This document shows positions 31,113 through 34,525 of a DNA stretch of 64,000 nt, piece after piece (within the stretch, counting starts at the first letter, position 1; each line of letters begins with the position of its first letter). The position numbers and the translations under genes were made by a program. The notes below the pieces were generated by a model that was not told where the DNA came from, did no database searches, and worked only from the letters and a program-made list of their open reading frames with translations. Origin of the DNA: Enterobacteria phage GiZh; sequence record NC_054903.1; one strand, 5' to 3'.

Positions 31113-31583
31113 CTAGCGATAAAAACCAAAGTGACGATTAGCTTCAATGATCTTTCTTTCTTCTTCGGACATTCTCCAGCGTAGTCCAACATCAAAATGA
31201 GCCCAGACCATCCTAACAAATGCATTTATATCTTTAATATCTTCAATAATGAATGTTTTACTTTTAGAAGGTTGACTCGCTAATTTAACTTTATCGTCTT
31301 CAAACATGTCAAAAAGACCATATTCATGAGCTCTTTTATAGCCTTTAATAGTTAAAGCTTCAGAAGAAGAAAATGGTGAATCTGTATTCTGCAAAATATC
31401 TTCAGTATGCTTTATAATTAGAATAACATTTTCTGGATATTTTCTTTCTTTTATATCTTTAATTAAAATATCCGGATTTTCTGCTAAAGGAATAATTAAC
31501 GAGCATTTTTTATCAAGTGTATTTACTGATTTACCTTCTTTAGACATAAATTCTATTGAATATAATTTTGCTACTTCAATCAT
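31113..31583 (-). CDS. hypothetical protein (156 aa)
   Basis: ORF. Confidence 0.55.
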
Positions 31584-31740: not shown

Positions 31741-31940
31741 GATTTATCACCATAGATGTCTCTCATCAATTTAAGCGCTGAGCGTTCTAATTTCTTTTCT
31801 TTCTCAGCACTAATCATTGATTTCATCCATTCTTCTGACTCGTTCTGTATTTCTTTATTTGCCTGTTCAACCCAACCATCATCAATATACATTGAGTTTG
31901 GTCTATTGAACCATTCAAGCATTTTCTTCAGAACTTTCAT
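31737..31940 (-). CDS. hypothetical protein (67 aa)
   Basis: ORF. Confidence 0.45.
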
Positions 31941-32400
31941 TTGTTTTACCTAAAACAATAGTAGGAGCATCGTCAAATTCATGAATTTTTAGCAATTTTG
32001 GATTTAAATTATTCCATACATAATAAATAAAGTATGATAAAGCATCTTCACTCGCAATTATAAATTTATTTCCTTCATTTATTTTCCAGTCATATACTGA
32101 ATCGTACGAATAAAAAGATAAAGGATTACCATTATATTGTTCTGCGCTAACATTAATGTATTCGGATTTAGTAAATGCTTCAATTGCTCTAAACGGACTA
32201 TTTGGCACAGTTTCAATAATTCCGATCTTTTTAAGTTTTATTTCAACATCTTCTGGAACTGGCATTGAAACGAAATTTTCTACGAGATACATAGGGTTAC
32301 AATAACCCTTATCAATCACTACGGCTACAGTAATTGGAACATCTTTAGCAAACGACATGCTATTACTGCTAATATACATTTCAAACAAAATCGCTTCCAT
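31915..32400 (-). CDS. mrh: hypothetical protein (161 aa), Mrh-like by size and position
   Basis: start at ATG with GAGGAAAA RBS gives 161 aa. Confidence 0.4.
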
Positions 32401-32408
32401 AATTTTCC

Positions 32409-32750
32409 TCAATCACAAGATGTAGATGAACAACTAGAATCACAAGAACTTCCACATGAATCACCTGCCCATACATGAACAGGAACATTGGTGTCATATG
32501 AATCAGAACTAGACTGTGTATTCTGTGCATTAGATGATGTAGTAGGTACTGACCAGCGCCAAGGATTTTTATAATATTCTTGGGCTTCTTCATAAGTCAT
32601 AGTAACTGCTTCTACTGTTCCATCTCCCATATAAACATATTCAACTACAGTTAAAGGAAGATAGTCATTTGAAATAGGAACTACACCTTCTCCCGGAGTT
32701 GTAGAGAAAAAATCTGTAAAGAAATTTTTAAACCAATTAAAGATAAACAT
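32409..32750 (-). CDS. hypothetical protein with Cys/Ser-rich C-terminal tail (113 aa)
   Basis: C-terminus [18 protein letters not shown]. Confidence 0.55.
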
Positions 32751-32962
32751 TACAAAAAGCCTCTTTGAAATTCGACTCTTTGAAATCCACCCCAGTCAGT
32801 ATATCGCATTTCAGCATTGAACTCGACTGAACCATCTGCATGCATCATGAATGAATGCGTGACGACATCACAATCCCAGCTTTTCATACCCCATTTATCA
32901 GAGATAGCTTTATCAAGAACCTTCTGAAGGTCTTCATTTGGTTTAATCCAACGATTTAACAT
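32750..32962 (-). CDS. hypothetical protein (70 aa)
   Basis: ORF. Confidence 0.5.
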   Translation of the reverse strand: MLNRWIKPNEDLQKVLDKAISDKWGMKSWDCDVVTHSFMMHADGSVEFNAEMRYTDWGGFQRVEFQRGFL

Positions 32963-33060
32963 AGTGTTCTCCTCTATAAGATATTTTTATTATACCACAC
33001 TCATTTTGACATGTAAACCATAAAATGAAAAAAGGAATCCCGAAGGATTCCTTAAATTAT

Positions 33061-33318
33061 TTAACCACCTACACCAGGTGTAGGTGTAACAGTCCAAAGA
33101 CCTTCATTAGCAGTGATCCATTCAGTACGCTGATTTTCTTCATATACTGTAGAATATGCTGCTTTTTCAGAAGGGAATGTCTGATAATGAGCACCAGAAA
33201 TTTTGTGAACATCAGAATAAAGAGGGAAAGCTACAGAAATTTCTTTACCCTGAATTGTACCACCATCAACTGCTTGGTCAAATGTTTTGATATTAACATA
33301 ACCGCGAGTACTAGCCAT
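33061..33318 (-). CDS. soc: small outer capsid protein Soc
   Basis: sequence recognised (MASTRGYVNIKTF...AFPLYSDVHKISGAHYQTF); 85 aa vs 80 in T4. Confidence 0.85.
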   Translation of the reverse strand: MASTRGYVNIKTFDQAVDGGTIQGKEISVAFPLYSDVHKISGAHYQTFPSEKAAYSTVYEENQRTEWITANEGLWTVTPTPGVGG

Positions 33319-33334
33319 GTAATTCTCCTTTTAT

Positions 33335-33544
33335 TTAAATTACATGATTATTTATAATAAATTCTCGCGGAACGTTAAAATACCCGATTTTAGTTAATAT
33401 AACAACATCGCCGTTAATAATTACCGGAGAATAATCTTCTGGAGCATTAAATTTCCAATGGGCTCTAATATTATATCCATCAGAACCAAATGCTCGCGTA
33501 GCTGGTCTCCCAGCTTTTTGCCATGCGTAGAAATCAAATTTCAT
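33335..33544 (-). CDS. hypothetical protein (69 aa)
   Basis: ORF between soc and 56. Confidence 0.5.
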   Translation of the reverse strand: MKFDFYAWQKAGRPATRAFGSDGYNIRAHWKFNAPEDYSPVIINGDVVILTKIGYFNVPREFIINNHVI

Positions 33545-33735
33545 TTTGAATGCTCTATAATTAATTTTAAAGCTTCTTCACTGACAAAAATTTCGTCAGG
33601 ACCTTCTATAACTTCAACCATACGAAGTTGATTAGTTAAGAGCTCACATACGAGCTCCTTGTTATAATCTTTAAATAGCTGGTCAATACGTTTCTTATGG
33701 GCTTTCTTGAGCTGACGCTTATTTAAACGAGCCAT
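33541..33735 (-). CDS. hypothetical protein (64 aa)
   Basis: ORF. Confidence 0.5.
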   Translation of the reverse strand: MARLNKRQLKKAHKKRIDQLFKDYNKELVCELLTNQLRMVEVIEGPDEIFVSEEALKLIIEHSK

Positions 33736-34253
33736 TAATAACCTCGGTCTTGACGAGCGAAGTTTTCAGCATTTTTCAGATAATAAAGTTTAAATATTTC
33801 TTCAGCTGACATTCCAAGAGCAATGAATTTATTCATGAAAAAGTGAAATTGATCAATCAGTTCAAATTTAATTTCAAGCTGATCTTCAGGAGATAAATCT
33901 TGAATTTTCTTGGATTGCATTTCAGAATAACGTTTCTTCCAAGGTTTCCATACAGCAGAAGCTTCTTTTTCGCCATTACTCATACCACCGAGAGAAGTAT
34001 ATAGCTCGCGAGTTTCGTCTGCGATATAATCGTCTTGGTTTCGCAACCAAGCAAGAACTTCTCCCGCAGTTTCAAGTGAATCAGGATGACGATTTGTTTC
34101 TGGTTTATCATTAGCCAAACGAATCTGTAAATGCCGCTGCATGTCAAGCATAACCTGCAGTGGGTCAATATTGTGCATAATATTCTCAGCATATGCACGA
34201 TTTGCTTTATCAACACCTTCGATCAAATGAGCACATTCATTAAAGTAAGCCAT
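33735..34253 (-). CDS. 56: dCTPase/dUTPase gp56 (MazG-like)
   Basis: 171 aa from ATG 34253 with RBS (ORF-track N-terminal extension not used); same length as T4 gp56. Confidence 0.8.
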   Translation of the reverse strand: MAYFNECAHLIEGVDKANRAYAENIMHNIDPLQVMLDMQRHLQIRLANDKPETNRHPDSLETAGEVLAWLRNQDDYIADETRELYTSLGGMSNGEKEASAVWKPWKKRYSEMQSKKIQDLSPEDQLEIKFELIDQFHFFMNKFIALGMSAEEIFKLYYLKNAENFARQDRGY

Positions 34254-34324
34254 TATTTTTCCTTTCAATTCATGGGTTAGTAGATTAATTATACAATAAA
34301 TATATAAAGCAATAAGGAGGACAT

Positions 34325-34525
34325 ATGGTACAAAAATTAATGGCACTTGTTAATGCCATCAAAGGTAATAAGAAACGTATAGCTTTTACTATTTCTGCTA
34401 TGGTAGGAATTTTACTCTGGAACTTTATTTTATCACCAATTGCAATTGCACATGGTGTTAATATTCCAGTAGTTACTCTTGATACATTTGTAGATTTAGC
34501 ATTTGCTTTAGTTGGGTTAATTTAA
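34325..34525 (+). CDS. small two-helix membrane protein (66 aa), the only + strand ORF in the early region
   Basis: perfect SD AAGGAGG 5 nt before ATG; hydrophobic; stop overlaps gene 61 stop on opposite strand. Confidence 0.5.
   Translation: MVQKLMALVNAIKGNKKRIAFTISAMVGILLWNFILSPIAIAHGVNIPVVTLDTFVDLAFALVGLI

Follow-up and report, generated by a model that had tools for sequence, protein, structure and literature searches.

A 113-codon open reading frame on the minus strand of Enterobacteria phage GiZh (NC_054903.1) ends in a short Ser- and Cys-rich stretch, which raises the question whether this tail is a working part of a protein and, if so, by what chemistry it might act. A sequence-only reading of the 64,000-nucleotide stretch analysed here, referred to below as the window, had described the product as a small early protein whose tail could be a metal-binding or redox element or a target for host modification. 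Of the large lytic phages T4 has been studied most, and about half of its early genes are without known function. The features of the locus are collected in Table 1.

Table 1. Coordinates of the features of the mrh.1 locus within the window, in order of transcription
Feature	Coordinates	Strand	Remarks
Intrinsic terminator after soc	33032..33053	-	Lies between late soc transcript and mrh.2 operon
Early-type sigma-70 promoter	32989..33017	-	TTTACA-17-TATAAT with TG, GTTTACA in context; heads mrh.2-mrh.1-mrh-srh
mrh.2	32750..32962	-	70 aa; PHROG 1873; translationally coupled to mrh.1
Ribosome-binding site of mrh.1	32760..32765	-	AAGAGG, 9 nt upstream, within the end of mrh.2
mrh.1 CDS	32409..32750	-	113 aa; ATG start, TGA stop at 32409-32411; DUF7206 over full length; annotated in RB32 and T4
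N-terminal aromatic amphipathic helix	32703..32747	-	Residues 2-16, then conserved PGEG motif; AF2 helix 3-15; K8, F15 and P19 conserved
Folded core, beta-hairpin and helix	32568..32651	-	Residues 34-61; conserved columns; AF2 pLDDT 73-83
EYVYMGDG motif	32619-32642		Near-invariant; inside the core
S/T/N/Q-rich linker	32472..32567	-	Residues 62-93; variable; occupancy 0.25; indels among Tequatrovirus variants; predicted disordered
C-terminal arm	32412..32471	-	W94-D113; lowest-entropy, highest-occupancy region; Tequatrovirus differences synonymous only
Codon of C99	32454-56	-	Arm of mrh.1
Codon of C103	32442-44	-	Arm of mrh.1
Codon of C107	32430-32	-	Arm of mrh.1
Codon of C112	32415-17	-	Arm of mrh.1
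Codon of terminal Asp, D113	32412-14		mrh.1
Alternative-frame ORF	32381..32593	-	70 aa; not conserved; judged non-coding; overlaps mrh.1
mrh	31915..32400	-	Pfam T4_MRH; start 8 nt past the mrh.1 stop; GAGGA ribosome-binding site overlaps the mrh.1 stop

Identity of the gene

The ORF and its tail were found as first described, beginning with ATG on the minus strand, and the product was identified as the orthologue of T4 Mrh.1. Its only Pfam match at E<=0.1 was to DUF7206 (PF23836), with a score of 104.1 bits against a cutoff of 25.6 and with residues 3-113 aligned to positions 1-107 of the 107 in the profile. It also matched PHROG 2031 (E=1.8e-33); both families are without assigned function. 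T4 Mrh.1 (T4p027) differs from the window protein at a few residues, has an identical tail and occupies the same operon position, while the identical full protein is present in GenBank in phages PaulHMueller and SHBML-50-1. The window itself belongs to Tequatrovirus: over positions 31900-33400 it shares 100% identity with Escherichia phages ES12 and ES26 and >99% with several further phages. The name mrh.1 has already been given in the records of RB32, RB14, AR1, JS98 and T4, and the gene is thus a known, catalogued T4 ORF. Over 700 genomes of phages carry mrh.1. A full-text search of the literature found neither mrh.1 nor DUF7206 named in any main text.

Since the window ORF is overlapped by an alternative one (32381..32593), the first reading had considered that the frame might be supported only by that neighbor. 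The mrh.1 frame proved to be supported independently. In Tequatrovirus, and there alone, the alternative frame stays open over 61-62 codons, against 24-37 codons in other genera, and mrh.1 is a real protein-coding gene. Frameshifted copies of mrh.1 occur in phage ERS-1 (P0006) and in one metagenome contig (L008:1501-1587), as sequencing errors or rare pseudogenes; the ERS-1 product runs into the frame of the alternative ORF, which is read only in such frameshifted copies.

Gene order and expression signals

On the minus strand the order is soc, terminator, promoter, mrh.2, mrh.1, mrh, srh, modA.4, modA.3, modA.2 and a modB-like gene. The promoter upstream of mrh.2-mrh.1 (GTTTACA-17-TGnTATAAT) agrees with the consensus at 11 of 12 positions, and where this near-consensus early-type promoter follows directly on the soc terminator, the late transcript of soc gives way to an early operon of mrh.2, mrh.1, mrh and srh. 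The T4 cluster of modA, modB, srh and mrh has been listed among the genes 3' of early promoters (PMC6024815), and it has been described as part of host takeover (PMC6024815, PMC6070864). Based on the promoter in front and on this placement in T4, the designation as a small early protein is reasonable and plausible.

The mrh.1 start overlaps the mrh.2 stop, as TAATG in the window and as ATGA in Dhakavirus-type loci. This coupling behind mrh.2 was seen in Tequatrovirus as well as in Dhakavirus-type loci, and mrh.1 stays in place where mrh is absent. Its position after mrh.2, between soc and srh/mrh, is the same in the annotated records of RB32, FelixPlatter, T4 and RB14, and synteny was retained in 15 loci located by tblastn in T4-like phages of Enterobacterales. 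Mrh.2 may be a partner of Mrh.1. When Mrh.2 and its orthologues were scanned for Cys or His residues that could complete a shared metal site, the scan found no conserved Cys but did find a conserved HSFMMH motif.

Functional data are available from the CRISPRi-ART supplements, in which knockdown of T4 mrh.1 is classed as "Semi-fit" with a fitness of 0.79 against a threshold of 0.7 and a K-S P of 0.069 (PMC11879866). It is one of five Semi-fit T4 genes of purely unknown function, and knockdowns of mrh.2, mrh, srh and soc are all listed as Not fit (PMC11879866). The mrh.1 signal, a hint that the gene may add slightly to fitness, is gene-specific but marginal, and is not significant by the authors' own criterion.

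The cysteine tail of the window protein

The tail had been credited with six regularly spaced cysteines; four were counted, C99, C103, C107 and C112, in the pattern C-x3-C-x3-C-x4-C, and the rest of Mrh.1 is free of Cys. Cys accounts for 1.2% of the residues in the long ORFs of the window, and at this frequency a particular stretch of 15 aa would contain four or more with a probability of about 3e-5. Only one other stretch with at least four Cys per 15 aa was found in the window, in a spurious ORF antisense to soc. Among ATG ORFs of at least 40 aa in the 64-kb window, mrh.1 alone ends in CD or CN, which bears out the remark that the tail is unusual among the neighboring small early proteins. 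None of the classical metal motifs CxxC, CxC, CC and CxxxCxxC is present in it.

Conservation of the tail across homologues

Low-complexity masking hid the tail in tblastn searches of the phage collection, and its conservation was judged from full-length proteins instead. A single-sequence word-index search gave seven clusters, all from Tequatrovirus and all with the tail. Distant orthologues were obtained by exhaustive phmmer together with a scan of viral contigs, phmmer itself adding two distant members; two further phmmer matches (P0024 and P0027) were discarded as Ser-rich false positives. The profile search gave 124 clusters, which extended the family to JS98/IME08-type phages and to phages of Salmonella, Enterobacter, Serratia, Cronobacter, Klebsiella, Edwardsiella and Kosakonia, and found it only in lytic T4-like phages. 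The homologue set used below comprises 127 distinct full-length members from many T4-like genera. In a 150-aa metagenome protein (P0007), residues 1-30 of Mrh.1 follow an unrelated N-terminal sequence, most likely as the result of chimeric assembly.

Far from being lost in homologues, the tail is conserved more strongly than any other region of the protein. In the family alignment residues 93-113 have an entropy of 0.83 bits and an occupancy of 0.92, the lowest and the highest values, respectively, of all regions. The penultimate Cys is present in all 127 members, which end in SCD (117), GCD (7), TCD (1) and SCN or GCN (2), that is, in CD in 125/127 and in CN in 2/127. By column, C112 is conserved at 100%, D113 at 98% and C103 at 97%, with C103, D104 and S105 all in the range of 94-97%. 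RB69 (Mosigvirus), which lies outside the 127, ends in CE within SDCGSSSGSCE; Klebsiella phage F48 ends in SSCDSGSVSCD, and EcS1 has the end SCSNDGGSYDSGSSDSGSGSCD, which finishes in CD. The RB69 orthologue (RB69ORF025c, at L019:1201-1449) is shortened to 82 aa and is not annotated as mrh.1, and its GAA-TGA end forms an ATGA overlap with the next ORF.

Outside Tequatrovirus the tails nearly always have two Cys, with three in a few members. The columns of C99 and C107 hold Ser in the other genera, so that the four-Cys form appears to be a Tequatrovirus-specific gain through two Ser-to-Cys changes. The spacing of the cysteines, the conservation of which had been suggested as a check, is not kept: the spacer between them is 4-10 residues outside Tequatrovirus and 18 in EcS1. 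Selection therefore does not maintain the fixed-geometry chelate that regularly spaced cysteines would imply. What is kept, as read from the aligned sequences, is Cys at the penultimate position and an acidic residue at the very end of a chain that no homologue extends further, together with another Cys that precedes the penultimate one by 4-18 residues in a stretch rich in S, G, D and Y.

At the DNA level, the tails of Tequatrovirus copies differ by synonymous changes without exception. Across 21 loci the conserved Cys are encoded by TGT or TGC and the terminal acid by GAT, GAC or GAA, while the Ser residues of the tail use all six codons, with switching between TCN and AGY. This synonymous turnover indicates that selection acts on the peptide, and the end of the arm is, by these comparisons, under strong purifying selection. 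A DNA-level cause, such as a ribosome-binding site or overlap belonging to the downstream gene, was considered and rejected, as the junction types vary by genus while the peptide end is kept: Cys-Asp-stop is retained with an 8-nt gap, with TAAATG, TAATG or ATGA junctions, and with gaps of 16-266 nt.

A mosaic form of Mrh.1 (P0003; phage 235Ecol030PP and Yersinia phage fPS-90) has 164 aa with an insert of about 50 aa. It joins a Tequatrovirus N-terminal part, a Dhakavirus-type helix with a hydrophobic segment, and the four-Cys Tequatrovirus tail, which points to recombination within mrh.1 that spares the tail.

Given a conserved tail in an independently supported frame, the tail is very probably functional, and the pattern of conserved residues suggests that it is probably a working thiol-bearing arm.

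Protein architecture

AlphaFold2 (AF2) was run on the window protein, with the 127-sequence alignment, and on the JS98 orthologue, likewise with a deep alignment. For the window protein the model has a helix at residues 3-15, strands at 34-40 and 46-52 and a helix at 53-61, with pLDDT of 44-52 in linker and tail. The JS98 model has the same layout with an additional long charged helix at 60-80, and a charged helix replaces the linker in most other genera. Structure prediction, which had been proposed as a check on the tail, left it unfolded in both models (pLDDT 44-53, against 73-83 for the core). With overall pLDDT of 59 and 61 the models are too weak for fold inference. The hydrophobic moment of the N-terminal helix is 0.45-0.6 across orthologues, and the N-terminus (M.xWLKxLF...PGEG, 10-16 aa) by inspection does not have the n-region, h-region and cleavage-site layout of a secreted or periplasmic peptide, so that no signal peptide is obvious there. 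Searches with Foldseek against BFVD, with profiles against the PDB, and of NCBIfam (E<=1) found no relatives beyond the family. Based upon three alignments, Mrh.1 carries both hallmarks recognised here for the family, namely the EYVYMGDG core and a C-terminal end of the form ...C...C-[DEN].

Proposed function of the arm

As mrh.1 is already catalogued, what is new here is the exact conserved element, ...C-x4-18-C-[D/E/N]-COOH on an arm predicted to be disordered, together with the analogy that this element suggests. DsrC and TusE are small proteins in which a flexible C-terminus is active and carries a strictly conserved penultimate Cys, and in DsrC a second Cys lies 10 residues upstream (PMC3397948). 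Like these non-enzymatic proteins of about 12 kDa, Mrh.1 has a penultimate Cys, in 127/127 members and in RB69, F48 and EcS1, on an arm predicted to be disordered. The likeness is one of geometry only: Mrh.1 matches neither Pfam DsrC nor TIGR03342 and has no sequence or fold relation to them, and its Cys spacer is variable where theirs is fixed. The composition also differs, the DsrC arm having Pro, Lys and Gly (PKPxGCV) with a terminal Val, while that of Mrh.1 is acidic and Ser-rich (S/G-S-C-D). DsrC and TusE belong to sulfur relays, in which the penultimate Cys takes up a persulfide from a donor of the TusBCD/DsrEFH type.

Other C-terminal thiol arms are those of ribonucleotide reductase (RNR) R1 (C754/C759), MsrA (C198/C206), MerA and mammalian TrxR, through which electrons, sulfur or metal reach buried sites. 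In class Ia RNR R1 and in MsrA the tail is a Gly/Ser-rich, flexible segment whose Cys pair takes part in disulfide exchange both with thioredoxin or glutaredoxin and with the buried active site. Mrh.1 resembles them in having a C-terminal Cys pair on a predicted flexible tail. However, the tails of RNR R1 and MsrA serve their own enzyme, whereas Mrh.1 is without an enzymatic domain and its core is a hairpin and helix of only about 30 aa; those tails do not depend on a penultimate Cys with an acidic end such as Mrh.1 has.

A strict end position together with a spacer of variable length between the Cys is better accounted for by an arm whose terminus enters a partner than by a fixed chelate. Drawing on the conserved sequence, the AF2 models and these analogies, we tentatively propose, as a possibility that falls short of probable, a role for Mrh.1 as a small adaptor or carrier whose terminal Cys-Asp enters a site on a partner and engages it by thiolate chemistry. 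The free Cys-Asp terminus would reach into a host or phage protein, and its thiolate would engage that partner by mixed disulfide or persulfide exchange or through a shared metal ion, with the upstream Cys acting as resolving Cys or as second ligand. Localisation or binding of the partner would fall to the core and the N-terminal helix. The ancestral arm would have had two Cys, and the four-Cys form of Tequatrovirus would be a lineage-specific elaboration. Several points argue against this proposal. The acidic neighbors should raise the pKa of the Cys, which argues against a highly reactive thiol; metal-induced folding, which is beyond AF2 modelling, is compatible with the predicted disorder; and the Cys could be conserved for a purpose other than thiol chemistry.

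The likely active element of Mrh.1 is narrowed by the alignments to about 10 terminal residues, comprising two family-wide Cys and an obligatory free acidic end, and mrh.1 is a testable lead in a model phage rather than a surprise. If the arm acts on a host thiol, sulfur or metal pathway, a new strategy of host takeover would be at hand; otherwise the result is a well-annotated DUF. In a bolder and quite unlikely version, Mrh.1 would represent a phage-specific class of "thiol-arm" proteins in which the Cys-Asp arm traps or hijacks a host sulfur, redox or metal-handling enzyme early in infection. Candidate targets would be the IscS-Tus persulfide relay, a thioredoxin- or glutaredoxin-dependent enzyme, or a metalloprotein, and, if true, a mechanism like that of DsrC/TusE would have been reinvented on an unrelated scaffold.

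Alternative explanations

The tail might instead bind Zn, Cu, Fe or an Fe-S cluster by itself, as a mini-metallothionein or as a dimer bridged by two Cys per chain, with no partner active site involved. The invariant Cys are mostly each followed by Asp (SCDS...SCD), as would suit mixed S/O ligands; the four Cys of Tequatrovirus suffice for one tetrathiolate site, and the two per chain of other genera suit an inter-chain bridge. The Ser/Cys composition resembles that of metallothionein segments, and a low-complexity make-up of this kind is common to metallothioneins and the Tequatrovirus Mrh.1 tail. Mrh.1 differs from metallothioneins, however: among its 113 aa are only four Cys, and in most genera only two, clusters of the CxC, CC or CxxC type are absent, and the tail makes up only about 20 aa. 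In the zinc clasp and hook (CD4-Lck, Rad50) and in MerR-type loops (CueR), two Cys per unstructured chain segment are completed by a partner or by digonal metal, but at short fixed spacings (CxC, CxxC, or C-x7-C in a folded dimer), against 4 to 18 residues in Mrh.1. A zinc ribbon or knuckle was not found either, there being no CxxC, no fold of the tail in AF2 and no match to a Pfam zinc finger. AF2 usually folds conserved zinc sites, and yet the tail is disordered in both models; no metal-binding family was matched in Pfam, NCBIfam or the PDB search. Because the classical motifs are absent, the spacing varies and the tail is unfolded in AF2, a metal site of fixed geometry does not fit, and a structural metal site would leave the strictly penultimate Cys unexplained. 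We regard autonomous metal binding as rather unlikely.

Insertion of a terminal thiol into a partner also has to be weighed against a linear motif that acts independently of thiols, in which the acidic Ser-rich tail would be a docking, mimicry, degradation or modification signal read through the free C-terminus, for example by phosphorylation or other host modification of Ser, Tyr or Cys. A low-complexity, anionic tail that is predicted to be disordered, with semi-conserved Tyr and Trp (SSW.GDS, YDSG) and a fixed C-terminal end, is what such a motif would look like, and mrh.1 lies in a cluster for host takeover that also contains mrh, srh, modA and modB. Yet the residues that never vary are the Cys and the terminal acid and not the aromatic or Ser positions, and the change of Ser to Cys in Tequatrovirus points to thiols. 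Neither T4 nor E. coli is known to have a kinase or other enzyme that would modify a tail of this kind, and we consider this explanation unlikely.

That the Ser/Cys-rich C-terminus is the core peptide of a RiPP-like precursor, cyclised or cross-linked in the manner of a lanthipeptide, a thiazole/oxazole peptide or a ranthipeptide, is very improbable. A C-terminus rich in Ser, Thr and Cys (and Asp) behind a longer N-terminal region does superficially resemble a RiPP precursor, but the N-terminal region of Mrh.1 consists of a conserved core that folds in the AF2 models and is not a leader, no maturase-like gene lies in the immediate neighborhood (mrh.2, mrh, srh, modA.2-.4, soc and gp56), and the family occurs in lytic T4-like phages only. 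The radical SAM motif CxxxCxxC, which belongs to a TIM-barrel-like domain, was not found; the tail reads CxxxCxxxCxxxxC, is predicted to be disordered, and in this form is absent outside Tequatrovirus.

That the tail is meaningless low-complexity sequence, or that the real gene is the overlapping ORF, has in its favor the open alternative frame of Tequatrovirus and the frameshifted copies in the ERS-1 record and one metagenome contig, but it has next to no probability and is already refuted by a tail kept across genera with synonymous codon turnover, by closure of the alternative frame outside Tequatrovirus, and by Pfam and PHROG profiles that span the mrh.1 frame to its last residue.

Other features of the region

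Two gene starts in the region were corrected relative to the mechanical ORFs, both of which are too long at the 5' end. For mrh the annotated start is the ATG at 32400 and not the TTG at 32412 of ORF 31915-32412, and for gene 56 it is the ATG at 34253 and not the GTG at 34346 of ORF 33735-34346. Between soc and gene 56, at 33335-33735 on the minus strand, are two small ORFs of 69 aa (DUF7422/PHROG 5773) and 64 aa; the same site holds the homing endonuclease gene segF in T4 and nothing in RB32, which marks it as a mosaic, indel-prone spot. The product of modA.3 (156 aa; 31113-31583, minus strand) is annotated in PHROG 1234, as is that of mrh, and modA.3, which shares the operon with mrh, looks like its paralogue. 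A partial duplication of srh/mrh is also present in RB32.
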